From assembly GCA_049647265.1 (NCBI GenBank), contig JBARXJ010000061.1, positions 103,585-135,584 of the forward strand: a DNA stretch of 32,000 nucleotides. The letters run 5' to 3'. Each line of letters begins with the position of its first letter. Within the stretch, counting starts at the first letter, position 1. The stretch is from Microcoleaceae cyanobacterium (GTDB lineage: Bacteria > Cyanobacteriota > Cyanobacteriia > Cyanobacteriales > Microcoleaceae). Position numbers and translations under genes: made by a program. Shown in pieces: positions 2,612 to 30,053 of the stretch. Under the pieces are notes generated by a model, which saw only the letters and a list, made by a program, of their open reading frames with translations, ran no database searches and was not told the origin of the DNA.

Positions 2612-3745
2612 ATGATACCTAAAATTTCTTCTATTCCCCTGATACAGTTAGCTTCAGGCGATCATCTTGTTCTGCAAATCTATCAATTTATTGGCTTACA
2701 GCCGGGAAAAAAGGCTTATCTTCAATCTAATTTACACGGCGCTGAGATTAGTGGCAATGCCGTTATTCAGCAATTGATCGAATTTCTAGTCAGTTTAGAT
2801 CCGTCTCAACTTACTGGAGAAATTTGCCTCGTCCCTGTTTGTAACCCCTTAAGTACTTCGATGCGATCGCATCATTTTTCTTCGGGTCGTTATAATATTT
2901 ATGATGGCAAAGATTGGAATCGAATTTTTTGGGATTATGAAAAAACAGATGCTGATATTACGAGTTTTGCTCAATCTCATCTGCATTTAAACCCGATAGA
3001 AATTCAACAAAAGTATCGTCAAAATATTATAGATAAATTTCATACTATTTTATCTGATATTCAATCTTCAAAAGGATTACCCTATTCGGAAGTGTATCGT
3101 TATCAATTACAATCTTTGTGTTTAGATGCGGACTATATTTTAGATTTACATAGTTCTACTAATCAAGCGATTGATTATTTATATTGTTTTAAAGCTCGTC
3201 AAGAGAGTGCAAAAGCCTTTCTCTTAGAACGTGGAATTTTGATGAATGATTATGATGGCGATGCGTTTGACGAAGCCTTTCTCAAGCCCTGGCTTGCCTT
3301 AGAAGATGCTTTAGCAGATGCCGGAAAACCCATACAATTTGATATTGAATCCTGGACATTAGAACTCGGTTCTGGGATGATCATGAATCCGAATTCTGTT
3401 AAAAATGGCGTTCGCGGCATTAAAAACTATCTCTGCACAAAAGGAATGTTAAACCTGCCCAATTATCCCCTACCAGAAACAGAAGATTACGAGGTATTAT
3501 TCACTCCCAAAAATCAACTAAAACGATATTATGCTCCCGTTGGCGGTATGATTCAATCCCGCGTGGAATTAGGAAGCACTATTAAAAAAGGAGATAAAAT
3601 TTATCAAATTCTCAGCTTTAATAAATTAGGAGAACTGCCCAAAATCATAGATGTTTACGCAGAATCAGACGGATTTATTTTTGATATGTCCACTAATCAT
3701 TCTGTGAATCAATATGATTATGTCCTAGGGGTGATGTTACAGTAA
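2612..3745 (+). CDS. Succinylglutamate desuccinylase/aspartoacylase (AstE/AspA, M14-like) family zinc hydrolase
   Basis: 377-aa ORF. N-terminal LQSNLHGAEISGN matches the HGxE zinc-ligand motif of this family. Assigned from memory of the family, not searched. Confidence 0.6.
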   Translation: MIPKISSIPLIQLASGDHLVLQIYQFIGLQPGKKAYLQSNLHGAEISGNAVIQQLIEFLVSLDPSQLTGEICLVPVCNPLSTSMRSHHFSSGRYNIYDGKDWNRIFWDYEKTDADITSFAQSHLHLNPIEIQQKYRQNIIDKFHTILSDIQSSKGLPYSEVYRYQLQSLCLDADYILDLHSSTNQAIDYLYCFKARQESAKAFLLERGILMNDYDGDAFDEAFLKPWLALEDALADAGKPIQFDIESWTLELGSGMIMNPNSVKNGVRGIKNYLCTKGMLNLPNYPLPETEDYEVLFTPKNQLKRYYAPVGGMIQSRVELGSTIKKGDKIYQILSFNKLGELPKIIDVYAESDGFIFDMSTNHSVNQYDYVLGVMLQ

Positions 3746-3772
3746 AACTCTTCGTTAAAATCTTACTATCCT

Positions 3773-3886
3773 CTGACTCCTAACTCCTGACGGGCGTGAC
3801 TCCTGGATACTGACTCGGTGACTCGGTGACTCCTGGATACTGACTCCTAACTCCCCACTCCTGACTCGGTGACTCGGTGACTCCGG
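3773..3886. repeat. Mosaic 7-8-mer tandem array (TGACTCC / TGACTCGG / TGGATAC / TAACTCC)
   Basis: Read directly. A 21-bp unit gtgactcctggatactgactc occurs at 3796-3816 and 3826-3846. A 23-bp unit tgactcggtgactcggtgactcc occurs at 3811-3833 and 3862-3884. The array starts about 28 nt after the stop of the upstream gene. Confidence 0.9.
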
Positions 3887-3934
3887 TATAAATGTTAAAG
3901 TAAATTTCGTATATATTTTAGCAGAGGTCTAGTC

Positions 3935-4417
3935 ATGGCATTAGATGAACAAGCCAAAAAAACAATTTTAAGAAAAATTCCCCATGCCCTCTATGTTTGC
4001 GGGGTTAAAGACGGAGAAGATGTCAACGGCTTTACTGCCAGTTGGGTGATGCAAGCCTCCTTTCAACCCCCGTTAGTGGTAAATTGTGTTAAAAATGATT
4101 CTAAATCCCATGAGATGATTGCCACCAGTGGCGTATTCTCTTTAAGTTTCCTAGAACAGGGTCAAAAAGAGATGGCGCAAAAGTTCTTTAAACCACAACG
4201 TCGCGTCGGTAATAAGTTTGAAGATGTCGAATTTTACGAAGGAGAAACAGGTTGCCCGATTATCTCAGATTCCCTGGGTTATGTCGAGTGTAAAGTCGTC
4301 GGTAGTGTTGAACAAGGAGACCATACCGTCTACGTCGGAGAAGTGATAGCCGCAGGTGTCCATCGAGAAGGAGAAATTCTTGATTTAGCCAGTACGGGTT
4401 GGAATTACGGCGGATAA
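3935..4417 (+). CDS. Flavin reductase-like FMN-binding family protein
   Basis: 160 aa. FTASWVMQASFQPPLVVNCV and GDHTVYVGEV are typical of the flavin reductase split-barrel domain. Confidence 0.75.
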   Translation: MALDEQAKKTILRKIPHALYVCGVKDGEDVNGFTASWVMQASFQPPLVVNCVKNDSKSHEMIATSGVFSLSFLEQGQKEMAQKFFKPQRRVGNKFEDVEFYEGETGCPIISDSLGYVECKVVGSVEQGDHTVYVGEVIAAGVHREGEILDLASTGWNYGG

Positions 4418-4506
4418 TTTAACCTGGGATGGGGCAGAAGTTACCACTCTGGCATCCCCATCTGTTATCCTACTCAAAATAGTCACTTCTGTTACCCATT
4501 GAGACA

Positions 4507-4854
4507 ATGCCGTTAATTAAGGTTCAAACCTCTGTTTCTCAACCCGAACAATCTATGGCAGAAGCCTTACTCAAAGATTTATCTGCGGCTTTAGCCCAAC
4601 AGTTAGGCAAGCCAGAATCCTACGTTATGACTGCATTAGAGGCAAATGTACCGATGACATTCGCAGGCACTACTGACCCAGTCTGTTATATGGAAATCAA
4701 AAGTATTGGCTTACCCAGCAGCAAAACACAAACCTTGAGTCAAGAATTTTGTCAAAAAATTAACCAATCATTGAATATTCCCACTGACCGTATTTACATT
4801 GAATTTGCTGATGCCCCCCGAAATATGTGGGGTTGGAATGGAAAAACATTTTAG
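4507..4854 (+). CDS. MIF / phenylpyruvate tautomerase family protein
   Basis: 115 aa. Met-Pro N-terminus (MPLIKVQT), where Pro-1 is the catalytic base in the tautomerase superfamily. Length and C-terminal WGWNGKTF are MIF-like. Confidence 0.7.
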   Translation: MPLIKVQTSVSQPEQSMAEALLKDLSAALAQQLGKPESYVMTALEANVPMTFAGTTDPVCYMEIKSIGLPSSKTQTLSQEFCQKINQSLNIPTDRIYIEFADAPRNMWGWNGKTF

Positions 4855-4983
4855 TTAATGTTCCTTAAGGTTACCTGATGGCGTTTCCTGATGCCTTTGT
4901 CACCTCTCCAACTTCCACAAACAACCGGAAAAGATGAGAAAATGGGGATGCCAGAGTATTTATATCGATTCAGTTAATATCCC

Positions 4984-6948: not shown

Positions 6949-7875
6949 TCAATCAATCTTTGCTCCCTGACTATCAATAGCTAAAGGCTGAACATTGGCT
7001 TCAACCCCAAGTTGTTTCCAGGCTGTTGTCATGGCAGCGGCAACTGTTGTAGCATTTTCTGTATCCGTCAACGCCAGTAATGTTGGCCCCGCACCACTAA
7101 TCACCAGTCCCATCGCCCCGGCTGCAATAGCGGCCGTTTGAACGGCTTCATAGCCCCGAATGAGACCATAGCGGTAAGGTTGATGAATACGGTCTGCTAA
7201 AGCCACCTGTAGCCACTGAGGCTGTGCTGTTGCTAAACCCCGCACCAATAAGCCAAAATGAGCTGTATTGAAAATTGCATCCGCTTTGCTGTATTCTGTG
7301 GGTAAGACTCGGCGGGCTTCTGCGGTCGATAGTTCAAAGTTGGGAATGGCTACGACTGGGATAATATCCGGATGCCAGGGAATATCACAAATTTCCCAGC
7401 GGTTATCCTCAGCAACCGAAAGTTGACAATTTCCCAACAAAGCTGGCACTACATTATCTGGATGTCCTTCAATGGCGATCGCCAGTTCTGTGACTTCTGC
7501 TAAACTAAGCGAATTACCCGAGAGTGCATTTGCCCCCAGTAAACCGCCCACAATGGCAGTAGCTGAACTTCCCAAACCTCTGGCTAAGGGAACACCTAAC
7601 TCAATCTGCATTTTAACCGGTGGCGGCGTTTGATCTAAATGTTGATACAGTTTAGTGAAAGCTTGATAGGCTAAATTATCTGAATTAGTGCTAACTCGAT
7701 CTGCTTCTACTCCAGTTACGCTAATCTCAACGGTTGAAGAATTCGGTTGAGAAGACGTAGGCAGCAGAGAAAAAGTAATACGATTATACAACGTTAAGGC
7801 AGCACCGATACAATCAAATCCTGGCCCTATATTTGCTGTCGTTGCGGGTACAGTTACTGTTACAGAATTAGACAT
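6949..7875 (-). CDS. thrB: Homoserine kinase
   Basis: VPATTANIGPGFDCIG and the GHMP-kinase motif GLGSSATAIVG. The ORF track extends to ATG 7914, but MSNSVTVTVPATT from ATG 7875 fits the usual ThrB N-terminus. Confidence 0.9.
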   Translation of the reverse strand: MSNSVTVTVPATTANIGPGFDCIGAALTLYNRITFSLLPTSSQPNSSTVEISVTGVEADRVSTNSDNLAYQAFTKLYQHLDQTPPPVKMQIELGVPLARGLGSSATAIVGGLLGANALSGNSLSLAEVTELAIAIEGHPDNVVPALLGNCQLSVAEDNRWEICDIPWHPDIIPVVAIPNFELSTAEARRVLPTEYSKADAIFNTAHFGLLVRGLATAQPQWLQVALADRIHQPYRYGLIRGYEAVQTAAIAAGAMGLVISGAGPTLLALTDTENATTVAAAMTTAWKQLGVEANVQPLAIDSQGAKID

Positions 7876-7941
7876 CTTTTGCGTATTTGCGATCGCCACT
7901 AACTGCTGCATCATACCAGATTCAAACAGAATTTAAAGTAT

Positions 7942-8015
7942 ACCTCACCCCAACCCCTCTCACCTCTCCCTGCCCTCTCGACCTCACCCCAACCCCTCTC
8001 CTAGTAGGAGAGGGG
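7942..8015. repeat. C-rich direct repeat plus hairpin (intergenic repeat element)
   Basis: acctcaccccaacccctctc occurs at 7942-7961 and 7981-8000. The second copy runs into the hairpin cccctctcc-tagt-aggagagggg (7993-8015). Confidence 0.8.
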
Positions 8016-8663: not shown

Positions 8664-11186
8664 TTGCAACAAAATAACCAAGTTGCGATCGCCGCAGCGG
8701 TTATTGGTATGGGCGGAGTCGGTAAAACAGAACTTGCTATTCAATACGCCCGTCAACACCTGGAAACCACCTATACAGGCGGCGTATGTTTCCTAACTGG
8801 CAATAGTTTTATCTTGGAGTTAATTCAATTTGCCCGTCCTCGCTTCTTCCCTAAAATGGATTTTAGCGGCTTTTCAGAAGCCGAACAATTAACCTATTGC
8901 TGGCAACATTGGGCGGAAGGGGAAGTCTTGTTAATTGTAGATGATGTCACAAACTACAAACAACAGGTTAAACCCTATTTACCCAGTTCTCCTCGGTTTA
9001 AAATATTAGTGACCACGCGAGAACAAATATCTAACGTTACGCCCCTCAACTTAGAAGTTCTGCATCCTGATGATGCCTTAAAATTACTTGAGTTTATCAT
9101 AGGAAAAAATCGCCTCAACGCAGAAGCCGAAACCGCAAAAGAACTGTGTAAATGGTTAGGTTATTTACCGTTGGGGTTAGAATTAGTCGGGCAATATTTA
9201 GCAGAAGATGAAGATCTGTCCTTGGCAAAGATGCTGCAACGCCTGCAACGTAAACGCCTACAACATTCTTCACTAAAAGATGCAGATACAGCAGAAACCG
9301 CAAAATTAGGAGTCGCCGCAGCCTTTGAATTAAGCTGGGAACGGTTGCAACAACAGCCAGAAACGCAACAATTAGGCTGTTTGTTATCGCTGTTTTATCC
9401 CGATGCAATTTTATGGGAATTAGTAGAAGCGGTGTATCAATATTGGCAAGGGGAAGATATTGATCTCGAAGATCTAGAAGACAACAGACGTAAGTTAGTT
9501 AAACTCAGCCTATTTCAACGAACTAAAGAGAGAACCTATCGCCTACATCAACTTTTACGAGAATTTTTCCGCGACAAACTGGAGAAACAGGAAGACGCAA
9601 CGGCAATGAAACAAGCCTTTATTAACACGATGGTCATTATTGCCCGTCAAATTCATCCAGCTATGATAACGAAACATATCAAACAGGTTGAACCCGCTAT
9701 TACACACATTGAGGAAGTGCCTAATTCTTTGCCTGAATTCTTATCAGATGAAGCTTTAGCTCTGTTTGATCGCTTAGGTTGGTTCTATCAAGCTCAGAAC
9801 TTGTATTCTGAAGCTGAATTGTGGCTAGAGAAAAGTGTCGAGATTGCAAAAAGCCGTTTCGGAGAGGAACATGAGGATGTTGCTACTAGCCTAAGTAATT
9901 TAGGTTCACTTTATCACATCCAAGGACGCTACAGTGAGGCTGAATCTCTTGGTGAGCAAGTTTTAAAGATCAGACGACAGCTATCTGCCGCAGATGACCC
10001 CAGTCTTACTACTGACTTGAATAATTTAGCCGTTGCTTACCATTACCAGGGACGCTACAGTAAGGCTGAACAGTTGTTTAAAGAAGCTTTAGAAATAGAA
10101 AAAGAATTGTGCGAAAAGAGAGAAAAGGTTTTAGAACAAGATCTAAAAAAAATGCAAGAAATAGCAATAAAAAGACTGATTAAAAAAAATATAAAAAAGC
10201 ATATTTACAAGCATGAACTAGAGTCAGAGATAGACAAAATATTGTCCGAAAAGTATTTGGATATAAAACAAATATATAATGATTATATTAGTATTGCATT
10301 GAGCCTGAATAACTTAGCTGAGTGTTGTGCTTACCAGGGACGTTATAGCGAAGCTGAACAGCTATATTACGAGGCTATAGAAAGATATAAAAAGATATTT
10401 GATACCGACGAACTTTCAAAAGTTGACAATTCAGATGTTGCTGTTGTTCTAAATAACTTAGGCATACTTTACTTTTTGCAAGGATACTATAATGAAGCTG
10501 AACATCTTAATCAGCAAGCTTTAGCCATAAGAAAACGCTTATTTCAGGGCGACCATCTTAGTATTGCACAAAGCTTTAATAGTTTAGCTGAACTTTACCT
10601 TGACCAATTCCAAGGACGCTATGACGAAGCCGAACCCTTATGTCGTGAAGCTTTAGCTATGAGAAAACGTTTATTTAGAAATGGTCACCCAAGTATAGCA
10701 GAAAGTTTAGATAATTTAGCTACATTCTATCAGTCGCAAGAAGACTATGACGAAGCTGAACGCTTATTTAAACAAGCCTTAGACATGAAAAAATACTTCT
10801 TTAAAGGTGACCATCCTAACATTGCAAAAACCTGTAATAGTATAGCTGAACTTTATTTATTACAAGAACGCTATGACGAGGCTACAACCTGGTATTACAA
10901 AGCTTTAGAAATCAGAGGACGTTTATTGGGTGAAGAACATCCTGACACTGTGCAAAGCTTTATTAGTATTGCTAAACTTTGTCAATGCCAAGGAGACTAT
11001 GAGCAAGCTGAAGGTTTATATTTGTTTGCTTATGCTACTTTTAGAAAGAATTTAGGCGAGGATCATCCTAAGACAGAAAATATTCGGCTGCAACTAATCA
11101 TGTTCTGCCAACAAGCGATCTATGAGAATCAAACCGATCAATTGAGTAATAAATTCACTAAGTTTTTAATTTCTCAACTTCAGTAA
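8664..11186 (+). CDS. STAND NTPase: NB-ARC domain plus nine 42-aa TPR (TPR_12/KLC-like) repeats
   Basis: NB-ARC motifs: P-loop GMGGVGKTELA (8706-8729), Walker B LLIVDDV, ILVTTRE, GYLPLGLELVG. There are 9 repeats of the type A-SLNNLA-LY-QGRY-EAE-L. The called TTG start is doubtful because the frame is open upstream to the TGA at 8535-8537. Confidence 0.85.
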   Translation: MQQNNQVAIAAAVIGMGGVGKTELAIQYARQHLETTYTGGVCFLTGNSFILELIQFARPRFFPKMDFSGFSEAEQLTYCWQHWAEGEVLLIVDDVTNYKQQVKPYLPSSPRFKILVTTREQISNVTPLNLEVLHPDDALKLLEFIIGKNRLNAEAETAKELCKWLGYLPLGLELVGQYLAEDEDLSLAKMLQRLQRKRLQHSSLKDADTAETAKLGVAAAFELSWERLQQQPETQQLGCLLSLFYPDAILWELVEAVYQYWQGEDIDLEDLEDNRRKLVKLSLFQRTKERTYRLHQLLREFFRDKLEKQEDATAMKQAFINTMVIIARQIHPAMITKHIKQVEPAITHIEEVPNSLPEFLSDEALALFDRLGWFYQAQNLYSEAELWLEKSVEIAKSRFGEEHEDVATSLSNLGSLYHIQGRYSEAESLGEQVLKIRRQLSAADDPSLTTDLNNLAVAYHYQGRYSKAEQLFKEALEIEKELCEKREKVLEQDLKKMQEIAIKRLIKKNIKKHIYKHELESEIDKILSEKYLDIKQIYNDYISIALSLNNLAECCAYQGRYSEAEQLYYEAIERYKKIFDTDELSKVDNSDVAVVLNNLGILYFLQGYYNEAEHLNQQALAIRKRLFQGDHLSIAQSFNSLAELYLDQFQGRYDEAEPLCREALAMRKRLFRNGHPSIAESLDNLATFYQSQEDYDEAERLFKQALDMKKYFFKGDHPNIAKTCNSIAELYLLQERYDEATTWYYKALEIRGRLLGEEHPDTVQSFISIAKLCQCQGDYEQAEGLYLFAYATFRKNLGEDHPKTENIRLQLIMFCQQAIYENQTDQLSNKFTKFLISQLQ

Positions 11187-11476: not shown

Positions 11477-11806
11477 ATGAAGCTACCCAATGGCGATAAA
11501 GCTGAAATTCCCTTGCAAAAGTTAATGAGTTATTGTCTTAATTCAGAACATCCTAGCGGTAAACACAAAGCCCGAGTTTTTGCATCAGTTCTCGGAATTA
11601 CCGCAGAGAATGTTGAACAGTTACAAGAACTCATTAAAGTTGCTGCGGTTGAGGGTGAAGTCGTACAACAAAATACAACTGCTTTTGGTCAGCAGTTTAA
11701 AGTAGACTGGAATATTCCTAAAATTGAAACATGGAAACTGCGAACTATCTGGGAAATCAAACACAATTCACTAAATCCTCGTTTAATTTCTGCATTTTTA
11801 ACCTAA
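11477..11806 (+). CDS. DUF6883-like protein (first gene of a coupled pair)
   Basis: 109 aa. KLMSYCLNSEHPSGKHKARVFASVLGIT resembles the conserved core I remember for DUF6883 proteins. Its stop TAA lies 1 nt before the next ATG. Confidence 0.55.
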   Translation: MKLPNGDKAEIPLQKLMSYCLNSEHPSGKHKARVFASVLGITAENVEQLQELIKVAAVEGEVVQQNTTAFGQQFKVDWNIPKIETWKLRTIWEIKHNSLNPRLISAFLT

Positions 11807-12214: not shown

Positions 12215-12505
12215 ATGCTAAATGGTATTAAACAACGAGGAATCGTTACTAAAGATGGGAAAATTGAAATACAAGCGCCTGAACTCCCAGAAGGAACAAT
12301 TGTTGAAGTTATTATTTTAGTTGAGAAAGAAGCAATAGAATCAGAGACTCCCTCACAAATTCCACAAGATACAACAGAATATTTACTCTCAAATGAATCT
12401 AATCGTCGTCATTTGATGACTGGAATTAAAGATGTAGAAAATAATACTAATCTTGTTAGTTTTACTCAAGAGGAATGGAATGAGGAACATAACATTCACT
12501 CCTAA
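12215..12505 (+). CDS. Hybrid antitoxin: AF2212/DUF104-like N-terminus plus YefM-type C-terminal toxin-binding tail
   Basis: The N-terminus GKIEIQAPELPEGTIVEVIIL is DUF104-like. The C-terminus TEYLLSNESNRRHLMTGIKDVEN resembles YefM TxYLLxSxxNxxRL. It overlaps the yoeB start. Confidence 0.65.
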   Translation: MLNGIKQRGIVTKDGKIEIQAPELPEGTIVEVIILVEKEAIESETPSQIPQDTTEYLLSNESNRRHLMTGIKDVENNTNLVSFTQEEWNEEHNIHS

Positions 12506-12743
12506 CGCTTTCAACGATTTTAATAATTGGGCAAAACAAGATAAGAAAATTTATCGTAAGATTATTACTCTGATTAATGATATACTTCGTCAACCTTTTA
12601 CTGGGTTGGGTAAACCTGAACCTTTGAAACATGAGCTGAAAGGATATTGGTCACGGCGCATTACTGATGAGCATCGTTTAGTCTATAAGGTTAGTGAGAA
12701 TGCAATTATTATTCTAAGTTGTCGATTTCATTATGATAATTAA
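12480..12743 (+). CDS. yoeB: YoeB/Txe family mRNA interferase toxin
   Basis: MRNITFTPNAFNDFNNWAKQDKKIYRKIITLINDILRQPFTGLGKPEPLKHELKGYWSRRITDEHRLVYKV...CRFHY is near-collinear with E. coli YoeB, including the C-terminal His-Tyr. The ORF track begins at ATG 12453, but ATG 12480 fits the family. Confidence 0.9.
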   Translation: MRNITFTPNAFNDFNNWAKQDKKIYRKIITLINDILRQPFTGLGKPEPLKHELKGYWSRRITDEHRLVYKVSENAIIILSCRFHYDN

Positions 12744-22452: not shown

Positions 22453-25400
22453 TTATAATTTTAGACATAATTGTAAACTGTCTGCTGGTATAGAATGACA
22501 AGGTAAGTTTGTTTTTTGTATGAGATTTAACGATGAGTTGAGTTGTCCTGGATGTTGTCCTTCATCAGATAACCATTGCTGAAAAACTCTCTCTCGTCCG
22601 TCTTGCGGTTGAACTAAATTATAAACCCGAATTCGTTTTCTATTTTTTGATTCTGATCGAATACATTTCAGTTTATAACCAATTAAATCAATTAAACGAC
22701 GTAAAACCATAATTGGGGTAGAATTTTTAGCCAGTCCAATTCCTAAAATAGATTTAATGGCATCTCGATCTTGTAAAGCGATTTTTGCCATATTTTGCAA
22801 GTCTATATCTGTATTTTTTAGTTCACGTTTTGAATTGTTTAATAATGCCGAAATTCCTAATAGTTCTAATGTGCCAATGACAGCACCCAGTTGAGAACGA
22901 TTAAAATCAGGTACAAAAATACTGCCCTGTCCTTGTTTAATTAATCGTTGTGCTATTTCTAAATCCCGTCCGGCTAAATACGTTCGACCCTCTGTTAGAA
23001 AATAGTGAATTCTTAATTGTTGATACCAGCCTTGATCGTCTTTTTCAACGAGTTCTGGAGTCACAGAAATACCGTAGCGTGATTTTAATTCGTAGTGCCG
23101 TTGAGAACGTCGTTCTGATGGTGTTTTAACCATGTTTTTAGTTAAGTTTTGGTATTGATAATAATCTAATATTTCGGCAGATGCGATCGCCTGACATTCC
23201 GATTGATAATTTTGATCTCGAACAGCGCTAATTAACTCTGATAATGTTGGTTTTTCTGATAAGCTTTTATTACTATTTTTTATTGTTATATCTTGATTAT
23301 TTTCATTAATACTTTTATCAATAATTTGATGACCTTCTGCGGCTAAGGCTGATAATATAGAAGTGCGATATTGACTCATTCCACTGTTAAATCTCACTGC
23401 CATTTTTGCCCAACACAGCAAAGATTCTGCCTGAAAACCAATTTCAATATCATCAATAGCATCCCAGTCAGATTGTTGTAACAAAGAGATATTTAACTGT
23501 GTTAACTTATGACCCGAAGAAAGTAACTTTTTCAGAGAAACAGAACCATTTCCAATCTGATTAAATCCATAAGTTGCTATCCATAAATATCGCGGTACAT
23601 TCTCTCTGACTCTGCCTAACGCTTGCCGCACCGAATTCTCTGCTTGAATTCCTTGAGCAATTCCCCAAACTGAGGTAAAATGCTCTTGAACATCTATACT
23701 GATTCCGGTTTCAATCACCGGAGAAGCTAACACAATATCATAGTTTTTTAGAACATGATTAAGATGCTTCATACAGCCATAAGCAGCATGAGTGGGATCG
23801 GCTAAAGATTCTGAATCTATTCTGAGAATTGTCTTCTGAGGAAATTGTGTTTTCAAATAGCTTTCTAATGTACAAGTTCCCCATTGACTCGCTGTTTTTT
23901 GCGCGGATAAACAAACAAAAGGTTTCCCCCCTTCAGCAATATGTTGTTCTAAATCTTTAACCAGTTGTTTGGGTGTATTTTCTGAATAACTATAAACGTT
24001 CCAGGCTTCTTTTACACCCGGTTGCCAATCATTTTTAATAATAAATGGATTTTGTTCATTATTGGCTAAATTCCGTAAATAATCTATCGAAATATCGCTT
24101 AAATCTGCATCGGCGACAATTACTCTACCATTTCCGCCTAAAATATTTTGTATTAATTTTTTAAAGGATTTGAGAATAGCAACTCGATGGTGACGACAAG
24201 TTTCTGAATTCAAACCATGCCATAAAACCTGTTCAACTTCATCAATAATCACAACCCCGTCTTGCCAATTTTCCGCTTGAAATTTTGCTAAAGAATTAGG
24301 ATGCAAAGAATCAATACATAATCCATAACCTGGCTGTTCTAAATTCGGGGAAGTAATTACCTGAGTTTGGTTCCCTGATTTAATCGATTGTAAACCAAAC
24401 CGTTGACATAATACCTCAACTAATCGAGTCCGATGACTAATCACCAATACCCATTGTTGCTGTTGAATTGCGGTTTTGACTAACTTTTCTAACAGTTGCG
24501 TTTTACCTGTCCCCTTAGGTGATTTTATCCCGATTAATTTAGCGTTTTTAGGAATATCAATATTAGGAAGATAACGACTTTCAACTTGACAATTGGCTGC
24601 ATAAGTTAGACGATTATAAGATAATGCTTTCCAACTCTCAAACGCCAAAGCAGAAGTATAAGCCCGGTCAAATTCAGCCTGATTTTGATTGGTAATTAAA
24701 TCATCAACGCCTTTACCCAATTGAGGATTCCAAGTAATCACTTTAACAACACAATTAGCCTGAGTCAATAAATAACCGAATTGTTGAATTGCATTTTGAA
24801 CCGATTTAATGCTATTCTGTTTTGTATCTTGATCGAAAGTAATATAAACCTCTCGTTGCGGTGTAGCGAACTTTTGTAATTGCGGAATTAAACGAGATGA
24901 ACCGATGCGGTTTCCCCACTCATCTTTCGGGACGCGATAGCCGCTATGAATGCCGGGTAAAGCAATAGCAACATATCCAGCAGTGAGTAACGCCCCGGCT
25001 TTTTTCGCCCCTTCTGTAATGCAGAGAGGAACTTCAGGATGATGGATGACCCAGTCCCAAAACCCTAAGTCGGGTTGATGAGGTTGTATGGCTGTGGGTG
25101 GAATGTCTAACTGATAACGTTCAGCGATGCGTTGCCAAATCTCTCGAGACACCCGTAATGCAAAAATACCGGTTGGCGTTTGAGGAGGATGTTCATATTT
25201 AATCAGTTTCTTTTGGTCACGACTGTGTCGAGGTTGCAGCGGTTTAAAACACCCCCAAGCATCCGTTTTCCCCGTTAAAATATCAATTCCCGAACACCAC
25301 CAACCCCCAGCATAGACATGATTATAACGATGCAGTAGAGTACTAGACAGCCTGCCATCATTGCGGCGAGAGAGAGTATTGGCAGACAAGAGATAATTCA

Positions 25401-25494
25401 GCGGATGATAACCCGCTAACGGAGTCACATTCAGTTGGGTTAATTGCGGGTCAACACCGCTTGCTTTCCATTCATCAAGATAATTTACAGCCAT
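22453..25494 (-). CDS. CyRepA1-type plasmid replication protein (DUF3854/Toprim-like N-domain plus P-loop helicase)
   Basis: N-terminus MAVNYLDEWKASGVDPQLT, Toprim Glu (CITEGAKKA) and DxD (ITFDQDTK). Walker A is SPKGTGKTQ and Walker B is VVIIDEVEQ. This architecture matches cyanobacterial CyRepA1 (Synechocystis pSYSA Slr7037) as I remember it. Confidence 0.7.
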   Translation of the reverse strand: MAVNYLDEWKASGVDPQLTQLNVTPLAGYHPLNYLLSANTLSRRNDGRLSSTLLHRYNHVYAGGWWCSGIDILTGKTDAWGCFKPLQPRHSRDQKKLIKYEHPPQTPTGIFALRVSREIWQRIAERYQLDIPPTAIQPHQPDLGFWDWVIHHPEVPLCITEGAKKAGALLTAGYVAIALPGIHSGYRVPKDEWGNRIGSSRLIPQLQKFATPQREVYITFDQDTKQNSIKSVQNAIQQFGYLLTQANCVVKVITWNPQLGKGVDDLITNQNQAEFDRAYTSALAFESWKALSYNRLTYAANCQVESRYLPNIDIPKNAKLIGIKSPKGTGKTQLLEKLVKTAIQQQQWVLVISHRTRLVEVLCQRFGLQSIKSGNQTQVITSPNLEQPGYGLCIDSLHPNSLAKFQAENWQDGVVIIDEVEQVLWHGLNSETCRHHRVAILKSFKKLIQNILGGNGRVIVADADLSDISIDYLRNLANNEQNPFIIKNDWQPGVKEAWNVYSYSENTPKQLVKDLEQHIAEGGKPFVCLSAQKTASQWGTCTLESYLKTQFPQKTILRIDSESLADPTHAAYGCMKHLNHVLKNYDIVLASPVIETGISIDVQEHFTSVWGIAQGIQAENSVRQALGRVRENVPRYLWIATYGFNQIGNGSVSLKKLLSSGHKLTQLNISLLQQSDWDAIDDIEIGFQAESLLCWAKMAVRFNSGMSQYRTSILSALAAEGHQIIDKSINENNQDITIKNSNKSLSEKPTLSELISAVRDQNYQSECQAIASAEILDYYQYQNLTKNMVKTPSERRSQRHYELKSRYGISVTPELVEKDDQGWYQQLRIHYFLTEGRTYLAGRDLEIAQRLIKQGQGSIFVPDFNRSQLGAVIGTLELLGISALLNNSKRELKNTDIDLQNMAKIALQDRDAIKSILGIGLAKNSTPIMVLRRLIDLIGYKLKCIRSESKNRKRIRVYNLVQPQDGRERVFQQWLSDEGQHPGQLNSSLNLIQKTNLPCHSIPADSLQLCLKL

Positions 25495-25769: not shown

Positions 25770-26420
25770 ATGTTTAGCCAAGAAACAGCAAAGACTAATT
25801 TTACAGAAGAAAATAACGTTTCATTAATGACTTTAGAGGACTTCCTAGACTGGTATCCTGATGGTTATTCTGGTCGATTTGAATTGCGTAATGGAGAAAT
25901 TATTAAAGTGCAACCCACTGGGACTCATGAACAAGTTGCTGGTTTTCTTGCTTTAGAACTCGGCGTGGAAATTAAACGTCTGAATTTACCCTATTTTATT
26001 CCTCGGCAAGGGCTAGTCAAAGCAATCAATTCAGAAAAATCGGCTTATATTCCGGATGTGATGGTATTAGATTCTAATGCTTTAGAAAATGAGCCTTTGT
26101 GGAAAAAGCGATCAACAATTACTCAAGGTACAAGTATTAAATTAGCCATAGAAGTTGTTAGTACCAATTGGCAAGATGATTATTTGATGAAGCTTGGAGA
26201 ATATGAGAAGTTAGGAATATGTGAATATTGGATAGTTGATTATTTAGGGCTAGGTGGTCGGCGTTATATTGGAAATCCTAAAAGACCAACTATTTCGGTT
26301 TATCATTTAGTTGAGGGAGAATATATGGTAAATTTATTTAGAGATAAAGATAGAGTGAATTCGCCAACTTTTCCTAATCTTAATTTGACGGCAGAACAAG
26401 TCTTTACTGTTGGGCAGTAA
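25770..26420 (+). CDS. Uma2 family (DUF820) PD-(D/E)xK-like endonuclease
   Basis: YELRNGEII-type N-terminus, IPDVMVL, AIEVVS and the signature GICEYWIVD. Confidence 0.8.
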   Translation: MFSQETAKTNFTEENNVSLMTLEDFLDWYPDGYSGRFELRNGEIIKVQPTGTHEQVAGFLALELGVEIKRLNLPYFIPRQGLVKAINSEKSAYIPDVMVLDSNALENEPLWKKRSTITQGTSIKLAIEVVSTNWQDDYLMKLGEYEKLGICEYWIVDYLGLGGRRYIGNPKRPTISVYHLVEGEYMVNLFRDKDRVNSPTFPNLNLTAEQVFTVGQ

Positions 26421-26457
26421 TTACAATACTAATATATCCATTGATGGAGCGATCATT

Positions 26458-27099
26458 ATGGCTAAACTTGCAACTACACTGCCAACTGAAACTTGGATAA
26501 CTCTTCCTTGGGAAAAGTACCTTGAGGCAATAGAAAATCCAATTTTTCAGAATTCAAAAAGTTATTACTATCGAGGAAGTATCAGAATTGAAATGCTGCC
26601 TGTAAGTTTTGATCATGGAAAATCTCATGTCATTATTGCTGCCGCTATCGCTATTTTTACTGCATTTAAAAGGATTCCAGGTAATGGGCTGGATACAACT
26701 TCTTTCCGAAAAATAGGTATAGGAGAATGTCAACCGGATCTGGCTTATTATTTAGAAAATCAGGCTCAAGTTATCCCGAATGGTACTGGAGTTGTGAATT
26801 TAGATCAGTATCCTGCACCGGATTTAGTGATTGAAATTGCAAAGAGTTCTTTACTCGATGACCTCGGCATTAAGCGGAGTTTATATGAAGAGTTAGGGGT
26901 GAAAGAATATTGGATTATTGATGTGAATACAACTGAAATTATTGCTTATACCATATTGAAGGAGGGGTTAGGAAGTCAACAAATTCGACAGTCTCAAGTT
27001 CTCACTGGGCTAAATTTAAGTCTGTTGGAAGAGGCATTGCGTCGCAACAGAGAAACTAATCAGTCGGCGGTTTTAGCTTTGTTAATGAATCAGTTTTAG
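26458..27099 (+). CDS. Uma2 family (DUF820) endonuclease, tandem paralogue
   Basis: PDLVIEIAKSS and GVKEYWIIDV. The ORF track starts at 26410, but ATG 26458 has GGAG 8 nt upstream and the usual family N-terminus. Confidence 0.8.
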   Translation: MAKLATTLPTETWITLPWEKYLEAIENPIFQNSKSYYYRGSIRIEMLPVSFDHGKSHVIIAAAIAIFTAFKRIPGNGLDTTSFRKIGIGECQPDLAYYLENQAQVIPNGTGVVNLDQYPAPDLVIEIAKSSLLDDLGIKRSLYEELGVKEYWIIDVNTTEIIAYTILKEGLGSQQIRQSQVLTGLNLSLLEEALRRNRETNQSAVLALLMNQF

Positions 27100-27196: not shown

Positions 27197-27670
27197 ATGA
27201 AAACTCAAAGACCATCCGTTTCAGCAACTGCTAATTTTTATGAACAGGATTATTATCTCTGGCTACAGCATACGCTAACACTCCTTCGAGAACATCAATT
27301 CTCTGAGTTAGACATCCCTCACTTAATTGAAGAAATGGAAGATATGGGACGGAGTGAAAAACGTGCAGTTGAAAGTAACCTGGTTGTTATTTTAATGCAT
27401 TTACTGAAATATCAATATCAACCCCAAAAACGCAGTAATAGCTGGAAAGCGAGTATCAGAGAACATCGACGGAGATTGAGAAAACTGTTAAAAGACAGTC
27501 CCAGCCTAAAGCCATATTTTCAAGACGTATTTCACGAATGTTATCAAGATGCAAGAGAACAAGCCAGTGATGAGACAGGTTTATCCTTAAAGACATTTCC
27601 AATAGAATCTCCGTTTACGCCAGAGGAGACGATGAACCGAGACTATTTACCTGATGATAATACAAACTAG
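27197..27670 (+). CDS. DUF29 domain protein
   Basis: YEQDYYLWLQHTLTLLREHQFSELDIPHLIEEMEDMGRSEKRAVESNL is the characteristic DUF29 opening. Confidence 0.8.
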   Translation: MKTQRPSVSATANFYEQDYYLWLQHTLTLLREHQFSELDIPHLIEEMEDMGRSEKRAVESNLVVILMHLLKYQYQPQKRSNSWKASIREHRRRLRKLLKDSPSLKPYFQDVFHECYQDAREQASDETGLSLKTFPIESPFTPEETMNRDYLPDDNTN

Positions 27671-28242
27671 AATCGCTAAATAATTCAATTCAATGGCATT
27701 TTCGGCTTAATTTAGGAAAAAGTTTGCCAATGATAATCTTTGAAGCCTTAGTGATCGGATTTTTACCTACCTATGCATATCACCCAGAACTTGTCAAGTC
27801 TAGCACACCAGGTCTGATAGAACAGCTTCAAAACTCGTGCAATTGCGGGTTCAAATAATTGTCAAGGTTTCTAGATATTTTACGAATTTTGGGGGGTTTG
27901 AGGGTCGTTAATTTACATCAAGACACACGACCCCCTCAACGACTAGAATAGCATACAGCTTGAAACAACGCAACCTCGTTTCTTATTGCGAATTATTCTT
28001 AGGCAAAAATCATCAAATTTCCGGGTATTGATTAAAATTTTCAAGATAAAACTCAAATAACATGATCTCAACTTATATTTAAGTCTGATGCCATTATGAT
28101 CGCACCGAGATGATTTGATTTGCGATCGCGCGCGTGTGGCGGTAGCTATATCGCTATCTTCAGTCCCAGAACTTTATACCTGATGAGATACTCCTTTGAT
28201 TCTTCCATTGTTGACGAACCTTTTTTCAGGCTAATATCATTT

Positions 28243-28296
28243 TTGTCAAGTATAAATAACCGAATACTTTAGGTACGGTAAGCCGAATAACTAACA
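28243..28296 (+). repeat. Promoter-like module copy 1 (TTGTCA-N16-TACTTT; CCGAATA half-sites 23 bp apart)
   Basis: TTGTCAAGTATAAATAACCGAATACTTTAGGTACGGTAAGCCGAATAACTAAC, aligned by eye to copies 2 and 3. Confidence 0.6.
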
Positions 28297-28526
28297 GAGA
28301 TTATCGGGGTGATTGCGATCGCCACTCTCACAAAGGCAATATATAGGATAAAAATAGCAACCACTAAATCATACGGACAGTTTCTATTTGTACAACCCAA
28401 CAATTCAGGCTTGGACTTGTTTAATGATGACACTGATGGATGCGATACGGCTAACGCCACGCGACCCGATGCCGAATTGCGGCGGCTACGCCATCGCACT
28501 TATTGTATATACAGTCAATTTATTTA

Positions 28527-28579
28527 TTGTCAAGTAGAAATAACCGAATAGTATTGCTACGGTAAACCGAACTAACCAT
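28527..28579 (+). repeat. Promoter-like module copy 2 (TTGTCA-N16-TAGTAT)
   Basis: TTGTCAAGTAGAAATAACCGAATAGTATTGCTACGGTAAACCGAACTAACC, roughly 85 percent identical to copy 1 by eye. Confidence 0.6.
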
Positions 28580-28628
28580 AGCCCTCAGACGTTAATTCTG
28601 GATTATTCTCTTTTAGTCATATTGAATT

Positions 28629-28919
28629 TTATTTTGATTGAATTATCGGTATTTCTAATAACTCTTTTAATGATAAAGTAGAGGGACGATGAGCATCAAG
28701 AGTTTGTTGAAGTTCTTCGTAGGAATATCCCATTTTAGTAATCGTATCTTCCCCCAAAATCGTTAAATAATCATTGACGAGTTGCCAGATTTGAGGGTCT
28801 TTAAGAGAGTGTTTCCAATGAGCTGAGTGTTGGGGATTGGGTTTAGTGTTTACGGATATTTCTATTCTTATTAATGTGTCAAGTCCAAATAACCAAATAC
28901 CTTCGATACTATAAACCAA
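28629..28919 (-). CDS. Doubtful small ORF (hypothetical; possibly non-coding or a gene remnant)
   Basis: The start is TTG, and the first ~24 codons are encoded by repeat module copy 3. The only in-frame ATG leaves 34 aa. I recognise no family. Confidence 0.25.
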   Translation of the reverse strand: MVYSIEGIWLFGLDTLIRIEISVNTKPNPQHSAHWKHSLKDPQIWQLVNDYLTILGEDTITKMGYSYEELQQTLDAHRPSTLSLKELLEIPIIQSK

Positions 28920-28925
28920 ATATTT
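28876..28925 (+). repeat. Promoter-like module copy 3, diverged (GTGTCA-N16-TACCTT; both half-sites CCAAATA)
   Basis: GTGTCAAGTCCAAATAACCAAATACCTTCGATACTATAAACCAAATATTT. It overlaps the putative TTG start of ORF 28629-28919. Confidence 0.5.
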
Positions 28926-28949
28926 TCAAGATTGTATAGTTTTAGATTA

Positions 28950-30053
28950 TTACTTTATATCTATTTTGATAGTGTTCATAAATTGCTTGAGTGCGGTTAA
29001 TTTAATTTGAAATTGATCGGCAATTTCTTCTAAAGGCTTTTGGCTGAGGTCTTGGTACTTCTGTTTCATACCAGATGCATCAATGAGCCATTGTGCTAGC
29101 TTCCCATCTGTGTTGCACCAGAGTAATTCTAAACCGTCACTAAGTTGATGAACCGCAAGAAATCGATAAATCCAGGGAAAGCGATCGCGAGTAACATGAC
29201 CTTTGTTGTCTTTTAGATACAGAGGCGGTTGACTTTCAAATTCTAGGATATAGCCATATTGACCAGAGATGAGGTTGATATTGGATTTGCAGAGAAGAGA
29301 CTGATTGGTTTGAGGAAGTTTGCTTAACTTCTCCAGCATTTGGAGTCTACTAAATCGCTTTTGGAAGTGACGAGGATGGTAAATATCGGAGATAAGGGAG
29401 AGGGTTTGGTTGTGTTGTTGGAATTGATTGAAGTGGGGATGGCTCGGCTTAACAAACAGGAAGGTATTTTGAGCATACCAAAATTCAACTTTGGGGGAGT
29501 TCCAGAATACGGGGCGAAACAGATCAAGGCAGTGGTAGCCATGACTCTCAAATAGTGAAATCCAGTAACTCTGGGGTTGTGTATTGATATGGTTGGTTCC
29601 AGCTTGACCCGGAATAGCAGCACCAAAGATAATCAGATCGGAGGCTTGACACATCTCTTGGATGAAAGATTCGCCTCGTTGAGGGGTAAGGTGTTCAGCA
29701 ACTTCCAGGCTAAGGGCGAGATCGAAGTTTCGATCTAGGGAAATGGGTTGTTCTAAATCTTGTAGGTGGTAGTTGATGACCTCTGGGTTGAATTTTTCTG
29801 AGTCGATCCAAAGACCATCAATGCCCAGGAGATCTTGAATGCCGAGGGAGTGAGCGATCGCTAACCAGGTTCCAATGCCACAACCAAAGTCAACCACAGA
29901 GTTAGGTTGATAAAGTTTAAAGAAGTAGCCTAATATTTCTTTAGCACTATTTAAGGAGCCGTCTGATTGAGCATTGTAAAAAGCTTTATTGTATTGATTT
30001 TCAACGTAAGTCATTCTTTGGAGTTGTTTTCTATCACTTTTATGTAAATTCAT
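28950..30053 (-). CDS. Class I SAM-dependent methyltransferase with a ~150-aa C-terminal domain of unknown function
   Basis: Motif I VVDFGCGIGTW and post-motif LSLEVAEHL. I do not recognise the C-terminal half. Confidence 0.8.
   Translation of the reverse strand: MNLHKSDRKQLQRMTYVENQYNKAFYNAQSDGSLNSAKEILGYFFKLYQPNSVVDFGCGIGTWLAIAHSLGIQDLLGIDGLWIDSEKFNPEVINYHLQDLEQPISLDRNFDLALSLEVAEHLTPQRGESFIQEMCQASDLIIFGAAIPGQAGTNHINTQPQSYWISLFESHGYHCLDLFRPVFWNSPKVEFWYAQNTFLFVKPSHPHFNQFQQHNQTLSLISDIYHPRHFQKRFSRLQMLEKLSKLPQTNQSLLCKSNINLISGQYGYILEFESQPPLYLKDNKGHVTRDRFPWIYRFLAVHQLSDGLELLWCNTDGKLAQWLIDASGMKQKYQDLSQKPLEEIADQFQIKLTALKQFMNTIKIDIK

Follow-up and report, generated by a model that had tools for sequence, protein, structure and literature searches.

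A same-orientation repeat module as a candidate junction sequence of small cassette arrays in Microcoleaceae

We analyzed a 1.2-kb coding desert (positions 27671-28949) in a 32,000-nucleotide stretch of DNA from a Microcoleaceae cyanobacterium (assembly GCA_049647265.1, contig JBARXJ010000061.1), hereafter called the window, in which three copies of a short module (C1, C2 and C3) lie in the same orientation. The modules are probably the junction repeats of a small, recombination-prone cassette array that sits beside a glycan-modification cluster and occurs in a narrow group of Microcoleaceae; we give this account a probability of about 0.55. We read the modules as cassette-junction repeats because the units between them are swapped at the same anchors, and because one exact deletion and one circle junction were found. 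Recombination between copies would delete, insert and swap the units lying between them. In the window it would have left debris in both slots and a hitch-hiking non-coding segment to the left of C1, giving the 1.2-kb desert. The modules of the window, with their scores in a sequence model (R1) built from the 19 copies described below, are the following:

28106-28232, plus strand: upstream part of the long-form module, with a highly iterated palindrome (HIP1) at 28122-28129, a GC-rich 21-mer at 28134-28154 (GTGTGGCGGTAGCTATATCGC) and then a T-rich stretch.
28233-28309, plus strand: module C1, long form, 63.8 bits; T-rich leader at 28233-28244, 44-nucleotide core at 28245-28288 (GTCAAG...AAGCCGAAT) and type A tail at 28289-28309 (AACTAACAGAGATTATCGGGG).
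28517-28576, plus strand: module C2, 57.4 bits; leader at 28517-28528 and core at 28529-28572.
28866-28945, plus strand: module C3, the terminal and most decayed copy, 48.5 bits; core at 28878-28921 and type B tail at 28922-28945 (ATTTTCAAGATTGTATAGTTTTAG), abutting the methyltransferase stop at 28950.

An earlier note on this DNA, made from the sequence alone, had described three same-orientation module copies, and these were recovered. A repeat search placed them in one family (28233-28287, 28517-28571 and 28866-28920, with 82% and 65% identity to C1), and a 44-nucleotide degenerate pattern matched exactly three sites in the window against 0.00 expected in shuffled sequence. The promoter-like layout that the note had proposed, TTGTCA (GTGTCA in C3), a 16-nucleotide spacer and TACTTT, TAGTAT or TACCTT, can be read directly from the sequence, as can its paired half-sites 23 nucleotides apart (in C1, CCGAATA starts at 28260 and 28283) and its HIP1 at 28315-28322. 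The note had further listed two upstream copies of the octamer TTGTCAAG, at 27791 and 27859, and had spotted no other exact copy by eye beyond the modules. Both are present, but a fifth copy lies at 24585-24592 on the minus strand; the window as a whole holds five exact copies against 1.3 expected. R1 did not score the sites at 27791 and 27859 as module copies, and the fifth octamer sits within the CyRepA coding sequence, where it is most likely due to chance.

The module recurs in related Microcoleaceae. We found 19 distinct full-length copies in eight loci, the three copies of the window included, as well as a decayed copy and two that run off the end of a contig. The other module-bearing loci are L002/L026, L006, L018, L019, L023, L025 and L028/L029; L018 and L023 hold three copies each, L019 and L025 two each, and L028/L029 three, the last of them cut by a contig end. 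Within every locus the orientation of the copies is uniform. A strict pattern run over 185,579 species-representative genomes matched 14 stretches, only two of which hold real module copies: L002, from a Microcoleaceae metagenome-assembled genome (MAG), with three copies, and L006, from an uncultured Lyngbya, with one. The other matches, in unrelated bacteria that were mostly sphingomonads, are taken to be chance. Further loci were reached through homologues of CyRepA and DUF29 together with a looser metagenome pattern. Among the JGI metagenomes the first pattern gave no match, in a collection that probably lacks the newer samples holding L018 and L019, and the looser pattern found only two contigs with real copies. 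R1 run over 245 kb of these loci returned 25 matches, all of them known copies or sibling-assembly duplicates.

The earlier note had named a high-copy repetitive extragenic palindromic (REP) or miniature inverted-repeat (MITE) element at many unrelated loci as one way in which its proposal could fail. Neither the pattern scan of the 185,579 genomes nor R1 over the module loci found such an element, and the copies show no terminal inverted repeats, no inverted partner, no target-site duplication at their edges and no high copy number. Its suggestion of a dispersed repeat family fits in that the module recurs in related genomes; it fits less well in that copies are few (one to four per locus) and restricted to a single type of accessory-gene array. 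One copy alone was seen inverted, a decayed module-like sequence (ACCGAATCAAAGATTACGGTAACAGAAAC) at L018 4725-4790, on the plus strand of the locus, just beyond a cmk remnant. Neither the region nor its 12-kb neighbourhood had a match among the PLSDB plasmids, and the region had none among viral contigs. No analogous repeats lie beside DUF29 in the more distant relatives L030 and L032, and an exact-protein look-up of the DUF29 protein of the window returned no record.

Aligning the 19 copies gave a conserved core of about 45 bp, GTCAAG-N3-AAATAACCGAATAC-N5-GTACGG-Y-AAACCGAAY, preceded by a T-rich tract and followed by one of a few tail types, including type A (AACAACCAGAGATTGTCGG) and type B (TCTCTTCAAGATTGTATCGTTTCAG). 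The blocks GTCAAG, AAATAACCGAATAC, GTACGG and AAACCGAA are invariant or nearly so; the variable positions are the three nucleotides after GTCAAG(T) and the five between ATAC and GTAC. Not a single insertion or deletion interrupts the 44-nucleotide core in any copy. The left edge is sharp, at the T-tract and GTCAAG, in all 19 copies, and the flanks are unrelated; non-terminal copies are 86-98% identical to the consensus and their flanks cannot be aligned. The core also contains inverted arms, ACCG[AT]A-N-T[AT]CGGT, which occur 11 times in 225 kb against 0.18 expected, ten times in modules and once in the decayed inverted copy. These arms straddle the putative -10 element, with a third, direct arm just downstream, an arrangement that looks like a protein-binding site, whether an operator or a recombinase core. 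C3 departs most from this pattern, with 9 mismatches over the 44 core positions and every CpG gone (CCGA to CCAA twice, ACGG to ACTA); similar CpG losses were seen in the first copy of L028 (L028c1), in the copy at L026 20038 and in the second half-site of L006. The earlier note had pointed out that both half-sites of C3 carry the same G-to-A change. The change is there, as part of this complete CpG loss, and because the terminal copy has undergone CpG decay it is better explained as mutational decay than as co-variation.

The copies bound small gene units. In these arrays n units lie within n+1 same-orientation copies, and the units, which include Uma2, DUF29, AbrB-PIN, Phd-PIN, MNT-HEPN and DUF4926, are mostly co-oriented with the modules. 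In the window, L018 and L019 a shared frame runs from a conserved non-coding segment (part B) through c1, slot 1, c2, slot 2 and c3 to a methyltransferase 3' end, and its slots are filled differently in different genomes. The layouts of the loci, with the two genes that flank the desert of the window, are:

Window: slot 1, cmk fragment and GC-rich palindrome; slot 2, sulfotransferase remnant.
L018: slot 1, 130-nucleotide spacer; slot 2, DUF29, a 332-residue protein and Uma2.
L019: slot 1, 130-nucleotide spacer; slot 2 absent.
L023: part B, c1, 150-nucleotide spacer, c2, AbrB-PIN, c3, Uma2, DUF29, XisH-XisI.
L025: Uma2, c1, Uma2, c2, DUF29.
L028: Na/Ala symporter, c1, Uma2, c2, 169aa-DUF29, c3.
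L002/L026: Phd-PIN, copy a, MNT-HEPN, copy b, DUF4926, copy c, cmk remnant.
27197-27670 of the window, plus strand: DUF29 gene (Pfam PF01724, E = 1.7e-57), a cassette gene.
28950-30053 of the window, minus strand: methyltransferase gene (Pfam Methyltransf_23), the distal anchor of the array, its 3' end facing C3.

DUF29 accompanies six of the seven module loci outside the window (none was seen in the examined part of L019), and its homologues adjoin modules in L002/L026, L018, L023, L025 and L028. The same methyltransferase gene end adjoins the terminal module in L018 and persists as an 18-nucleotide remnant in L019. More widely, the arrays adjoin glycan-modification genes, namely sulfotransferases, methyltransferases, TPR proteins and MptE-like genes. 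The flanks of the window copies have counterparts as well: the left flank of C1 is common to L018c1, L019c1, L023c1 and L028c2, the leader at 28106-28232 also precedes copies in L018, L019, L023 and L028, the tail of C2 to about 28607 resembles that of the L006 copy, and the right flank of C3 matches that of L018c3 at 125 of 150 nucleotides. No recombinase gene was found within about 10 kb of any locus among the open reading frames (ORFs) of the window, L018, L019, L023, L025, L026 and L028. TnpB genes or fragments (IS605 OrfB / Cas12f-like) lie within a few kb of arrays at L018 5500-6720, L019 6348-6716 and L023 1803-2516. Upstream of the desert, two Uma2-family genes of the window (25770-26420 and 26410-27099) overlap by 11 nucleotides and are followed by DUF29, and these three genes have no module between them, unlike their counterparts in L025 and L028.

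Two copies record the two outcomes of a single kind of exchange. The left flank of L019c2 is that of L018c2 (137 of 150 nucleotides), and its right flank starts with the first 40 or so nucleotides of the right flank of L018c3; from these matches L019c2 is evidently the deletion product of recombination between c2 and c3. Conversely, L025c2 combines the left flank of L018c3 (147 of 150) with the right flank of L018c2 (143 of 146), and so placed between Uma2 and DUF29 it is, to judge by its flanks, the Uma2-module-DUF29 junction expected of an excised circle. Private variants recur among the copies of a single genome, such as AAACAACC in L023c1 and L023c3, a sign of concerted evolution. Contigs repeatedly end in or beside modules, as in L028 and L029. 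In L002/L026 the 3' part of an MptE-like gene is duplicated directly over 337 nucleotides at 90% identity, and the two sites (L026 9572-9908 and 12516-13289, corresponding to L002 4367-5140 and about 7700-8000) bracket the array: the gene is intact at one end and present as a displaced fragment at the other. This is the signature of integrated foreign DNA that carried the end of the gene. Recombination between modules would be either of RecA type, over 45-75 bp of homology, or at a defined site. The mosaic pattern of L019c2 favours gene conversion; a module edge in the window that is joined directly to internal sulfotransferase gene sequence favours a more site-directed process.

The contents of the desert can be named in large part. 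They are, in order:

27684-27726, minus strand: 3'-end fragment of panC/cmk (...FPLGQAEDAIEL part), aligning to L018 4490-4560 and cut off by the end of the DUF29 gene.
27727-28105, no strand assigned: part B, conserved non-coding DNA, always upstream of a type A module and holding the octamers at 27791 and 27859.
28376-28432, minus strand: second, decayed cmk 3'-end fragment (...VQ.IV.LY..KLSV, with in-frame stops), filling slot 1 between C1 and C2.
28435-28500, no strand assigned: GC-rich imperfect palindrome made of an inverted copy of the 21-mer (28442-28462, minus strand) and a direct-like copy.
28629-28850, minus strand: 5'-truncated sulfotransferase pseudogene, the real part of ORF 28629-28919, filling slot 2 between C2 and C3.

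As the earlier note had concluded, the region contains no convincing coding sequence: its sole ORF of more than 90 residues (28629-28919, minus strand) is a 5'-truncated sulfotransferase remnant, and its ORFs of 76 and 80 residues had no family match. Residues 24-96 of ORF 28629-28919 are 77% identical over 73 residues to residues 233-305 of the 307-residue sulfotransferase of L019 (BLASTP, E = 3e-38), and the truncation point coincides with the left edge of C3. Similar sulfotransferase remnants lie at L025 2826-3095 and L002 6050-6135. The identity of the first cmk fragment comes from its L018 counterpart, since the translation of L018 4490-4560 (...FPLGQAEDAIELSTDTPSIEPVQTQIVEMYQQK...) matches NCBIfam NF010004 (PanC/Cmk) at positions 472-506 of 514 (E = 6.7e-7). 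The second fragment, 28376-28432, aligns with L002 7540-7650 and with the segment of L018/L019 named part A. A search for a native panC/cmk with a profile of the 42-residue cmk remnant found only the L002 ORF itself. The region codes for nothing because the slots between its repeats hold only gene debris. The earlier note had also allowed that the region might simply be a decayed gene, and a protein comparison bore this out for the fill, which does consist of decayed genes, but not for the modules.

The GC-rich, hairpin-prone stretch that the note had marked folds at -25.2 and -28.8 kcal/mol, but with z-scores of only -1.7 and -2.0. Within the 32 kb its 21-mer (GTGTGGCGGTAGCTRTATCGC) has just two sites, 28134 (plus) and 28442 (minus); in other genomes it lies 40-90 nucleotides upstream of long-form modules, often beside HIP1, and it may be a separate, very small repeat. 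Other sites of the 21-mer are L002 5810-5830 and 6905-6925, L018 at about 4100 and L028 at about 8895; among all its sites it is inverted once.

Part B is about 82% identical to segments of L018, L019 and L023 and is partly present in L017. The DUF29 and Uma2 genes beside it have much the same identity at their third codon positions (0.79-0.80), so part B diverges at a roughly neutral pace; it has no shared ORF and no codon periodicity in its substitutions (32/24/20). We considered it as a decayed gene and rejected this, its conceptual translations having no family match except for the cmk tail and its substitutions no codon periodicity. As a folded RNA it gave an RNAalifold covariation term of only -2.9 kcal/mol over four sequences, with most helices invariant. 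We treat part B provisionally as hitch-hiking non-coding DNA of no assigned function. It contains a stem at 27891-27939 (GGGGGGTTTGAGGG...CCCCCTCAA) that is invariant in L018, L019 and L023 and shows no covariation there. In L023 a group II intron, with a 542-residue reverse transcriptase/maturase carrying an HNH domain, lies inside part B on the module strand (3099-4935, equivalent to about 27735 of the window), and its position and strand hint that part B is transcribed in the module direction.

The core may in addition act as a protein-bound promoter or operator reading into the downstream unit, through TTGTCA, a 16-nucleotide spacer and TACTYT together with the ACCGWA/TWCGGT arms. We hold this predicted part of the account more tentatively than its recombination part, as rather less than an even bet. 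TTGTCA is exact in 12 of the 19 copies, and C1, C2 and C3 all retain GTCA; every copy has a 16-nucleotide spacer, TAnnnT is present in 17 and a T-rich tract lies upstream. Eight copies sit 70-280 nucleotides upstream of a co-oriented gene. The strongest conservation of the core falls outside the hexamers. Other explanations of the core were tried and rejected. A minus-strand promoter finds a perfect TTGAC(A) in the reverse complement, with a -10 element at 16-18 nucleotides in only a few copies. A small hairpin, CCGaaTAC/GTACGG, has one compensatory change (C2) and one wobble (L025c1); its stem is broken in C3 and its folds are not significant. The known operator motifs of LexA, NtcA and RpaB have mismatched spacing.

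Several observations weigh against our account, most of them against its promoter part. In a scan with the sigma-70 consensus (TTGACA/TATAAT) only C2 qualified, with 9 of 12 positions (TTGTCA-16-TAGTAT); most copies match that consensus at only three of six -10 positions, and the -10 position reads TACTTC in L002c and TGCTCT in L025c1. Across the region, promoter-like sites are about as frequent as expected (7 found, 6.3 expected), terminator-like sites are likewise not in excess, and none of the copies is followed by one of the latter. Roughly one copy in two points at a convergent gene's 3' end or at a gene fragment, not at a co-oriented gene. In the window and in L023, DUF29 is preceded by other upstream regions and therefore does not need the module. 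The core is about 86-95% identical between genomes, which exceeds the neutral level given by the third codon positions (0.79-0.80) only moderately, and recent spread with gene conversion could have produced the core conservation in a sequence of no function. The sample is small: about seven lineages, mostly metagenome contigs that are often broken at the repeat. Searches of the transcribed or folded form were negative. Rfam 15 gave only a chance-level match (sau-30, 24.8 bits against a gathering score of 70), and 96-nucleotide single-stranded DNA windows, folded on both strands for five copies, had minimum free energies of -1.2 to -11.9 kcal/mol with z-scores from +1.9 to -1.8. Because this single-strand folding is unremarkable, an attC-like hairpin or an intrinsic terminator is unlikely.

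A recombination site in the strict sense is the most probable of the alternatives. The module would then be a dedicated site whose recombinase, encoded elsewhere, binds the inverted TWACCGWA arms and cuts in the variable 9-nucleotide spacer; units would be excised as circles and re-inserted at other copies, making the module a functional analogue of attC or plasmid dif. The single orientation with n units within n+1 copies, the sharp left edge at the T-tract and GTCAAG in all 19 copies, and the occurrence of both reciprocal c2 x c3 products would all follow, and the most variable core positions do fall between the two inverted arms. The module edge joined to the interior of the sulfotransferase gene in the window is not predicted by homologous recombination, and the content of the arrays, toxin-antitoxin (TA) pairs and small selfish genes, resembles that of the cassettes of integrons and of attC clusters lacking an integrase (CALINs), which likewise have no integrase nearby (PMC4889954). 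Yet neither a tyrosine nor a serine recombinase is encoded within about 10 kb of any locus, R''/R' boxes and a stable hairpin are lacking (z from -0.5 to -1.8, or positive), L019c2 is pieced together from patches resembling c2 and c3 with no single switch point, as gene conversion would leave it, and a 9-nucleotide spacer with an overlapping third arm is atypical of known core sites. We therefore judge a dedicated site unlikely, if worth keeping in view. Still more doubtful is a previously undescribed cassette system that would combine a recombinase encoded elsewhere, a site that is neither attC nor dif, and circles, and whose sites would each also carry a promoter directed outward, into the following unit; the associated genes of XisH/XisI type might act in such a system as accessory factors. 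At the other extreme the module could be a functionless intergenic piece, copied along with the units by duplication or gene conversion, or a decaying miniature mobile element that persists only because it is young. Core identity only moderately above neutral between genomes, the CpG decay of the terminal copies C3, L028c1 and L026 20038, and the narrow distribution (true copies in 2 of 185,579 species-representative genomes with the strict pattern) would suit such a piece, but the common left edge at which similarity stops abruptly in 19 copies whose flanks are unrelated, a core free of indels, non-terminal copies at 86-98% to the consensus between unalignable flanks, and the lack of terminal inverted repeats, target duplications or high copy number make it quite improbable.

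The earlier note had put forward two functions. It had pictured co-regulated promoters firing small or antisense RNAs: a roughly 250-nucleotide RNA from C1, one antisense to ORF 28629-28919 from C2 and one antisense to the methyltransferase 3' end from C3. The layout is conserved in 17 of the 19 copies, C2 passes the consensus scan and several copies elsewhere also face convergent gene 3' ends. However, the proposed targets in the window are the remains of a sulfotransferase gene, a decayed piece of cmk and a convergent gene 3' end; no terminator-like site follows any copy and Rfam has no match; the downstream sequence is not one conserved RNA, having several tail types and unrelated flanks; and in other genomes the same module precedes ordinary protein genes. 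Such RNAs are improbable as the reason for the modules. The note had also suggested iteron or partition-type sites linked to the nearby CyRepA gene, the modules being iterons or centromere-like sites of a CyRepA1 replicon bound by its Rep or a partition protein. Direct half-sites 23 bp apart, about two helical turns, beside a T-rich tract would suit an iteron, and the distance between modules and CyRepA is 2.7-3.4 kb in the window and 0.5 kb in L006. For CyRepA2 an upstream region is needed for replication (PMC10079941), which also speaks for sites of this kind near the gene. But the co-occurrence fails across genomes: modules are found with no CyRepA within 10-20 kb (L002/L026 and L028), CyRepA is found with no modules (L015-L017, L021 and L030), and one MAG lineage has its modules on one contig (L002) and CyRepA on another (L021). 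Moreover, CyRepA stands here in chromosomal synteny with SelR, ThiC, Omp85, fabF and acpP, each module has two half-sites and not a tandem array of three or more, and no parA or parB gene is nearby. The iteron reading is already largely refuted by the co-occurrence test, and we consider it very improbable.

The CyRepA1-family gene itself (22453-25494 of the window, minus strand) and its relatives in L015-L021 and L030 keep a conserved, chromosomal-looking synteny in several relatives. Its neighbours are SelR/MsrB, asparaginase, Omp85 and ThiC, and in the relatives also fabF, acpP and a penicillin-binding protein. The copy in the window is probably chromosomally integrated and not a plasmid marker. 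A further TA-like unit lies 16 kb from the array; it comprises a DUF6883 gene and small ORFs (11477-11806 and 12215-12743), has no modules and is located downstream of an NB-ARC/TPR gene at 8664-11186.

Small, selfish-looking genes, such as Uma2, DUF29, XisH/XisI and TA pairs, are very numerous in filamentous cyanobacteria, and their movement and shuffling are poorly understood. This locus offers a concrete and testable example, in which a 45-bp repeat bounds units that are gained, lost and exchanged beside a polysaccharide-modification cluster, and natural genomes show the two products of one exchange. Should the module turn out to be a portable promoter or a genuine recombination site, it would aid the annotation of such arrays and offer cyanobacterial genetics a candidate part; if it serves homologous recombination only as a substrate, the locus would be an ordinary recombination hot spot filled with gene debris.

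Several known systems resemble these arrays in part. In Nostocales, NsiR1 is encoded by tandem arrays of small RNA genes, with repeated promoter-bearing units in one orientation. Unlike those arrays, the modules have no conserved transcribed body and no terminator, and protein genes or debris lie between the repeats. Plasmid iterons share with them direct repeats about 22-23 bp apart by an A/T-rich tract and, in the window, a Rep gene not far away, whereas the modules have two half-sites each, are spaced 280-350 bp apart, do not co-occur with CyRepA across genomes and have a chromosomal context. Sites of Xer/dif type have two inverted 11-bp arms and a 6-8 bp spacer between them; the pdif sites of Acinetobacter plasmids are 28-bp (11-6-11) sites of XerC/XerD type that flank modules in alternating inverted orientation. 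Like pdif modules, which are shuffled between replicons, the units here are small, often TA pairs, bounded by short repeats and linked to no dedicated recombinase; unlike them, the repeats are direct, with TWACCGWA arms of about 8 bp, a 9-nucleotide spacer (8 in one decayed copy) and a third arm.

Reused or mobile promoters are near-identical upstream regions that stand before unrelated genes within and between genomes (PMC3575422). The modules resemble them in their -35 and -10 elements with a fixed spacer, here predicted from sequence, and differ in that about half of the copies have no co-oriented downstream gene and that all are confined to one array type, where they mark recombination junctions. 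The arrays are organized much like those of integrons and CALINs, clusters of attC sites without an integrase, most of which have none nearby (PMC4889954). The modules differ from attC sites in lacking RYYYAAC/GTTRRRY boxes (19 copies, both strands; the nearest, AAATAAC, GTTAGTT and GTTTACC, violate the Y/R positions) and imperfect-palindrome hairpins, being a 45-nucleotide core of highly similar sequence and not a structure-defined site. They differ from integrons in that no module locus has an intI gene or pseudogene, and from integron cassettes in that several units clearly carry their own upstream regions. As in most CALINs, no integrase is found near the module arrays. As in integrons and CALINs, co-oriented short repeats lie between small, mostly co-oriented accessory or TA-type units, the units differ between related genomes at the same anchors, and deletion and circle-junction products are seen. 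What is chiefly new is that the modules are read as cassette junctions and the desert as recombination debris.

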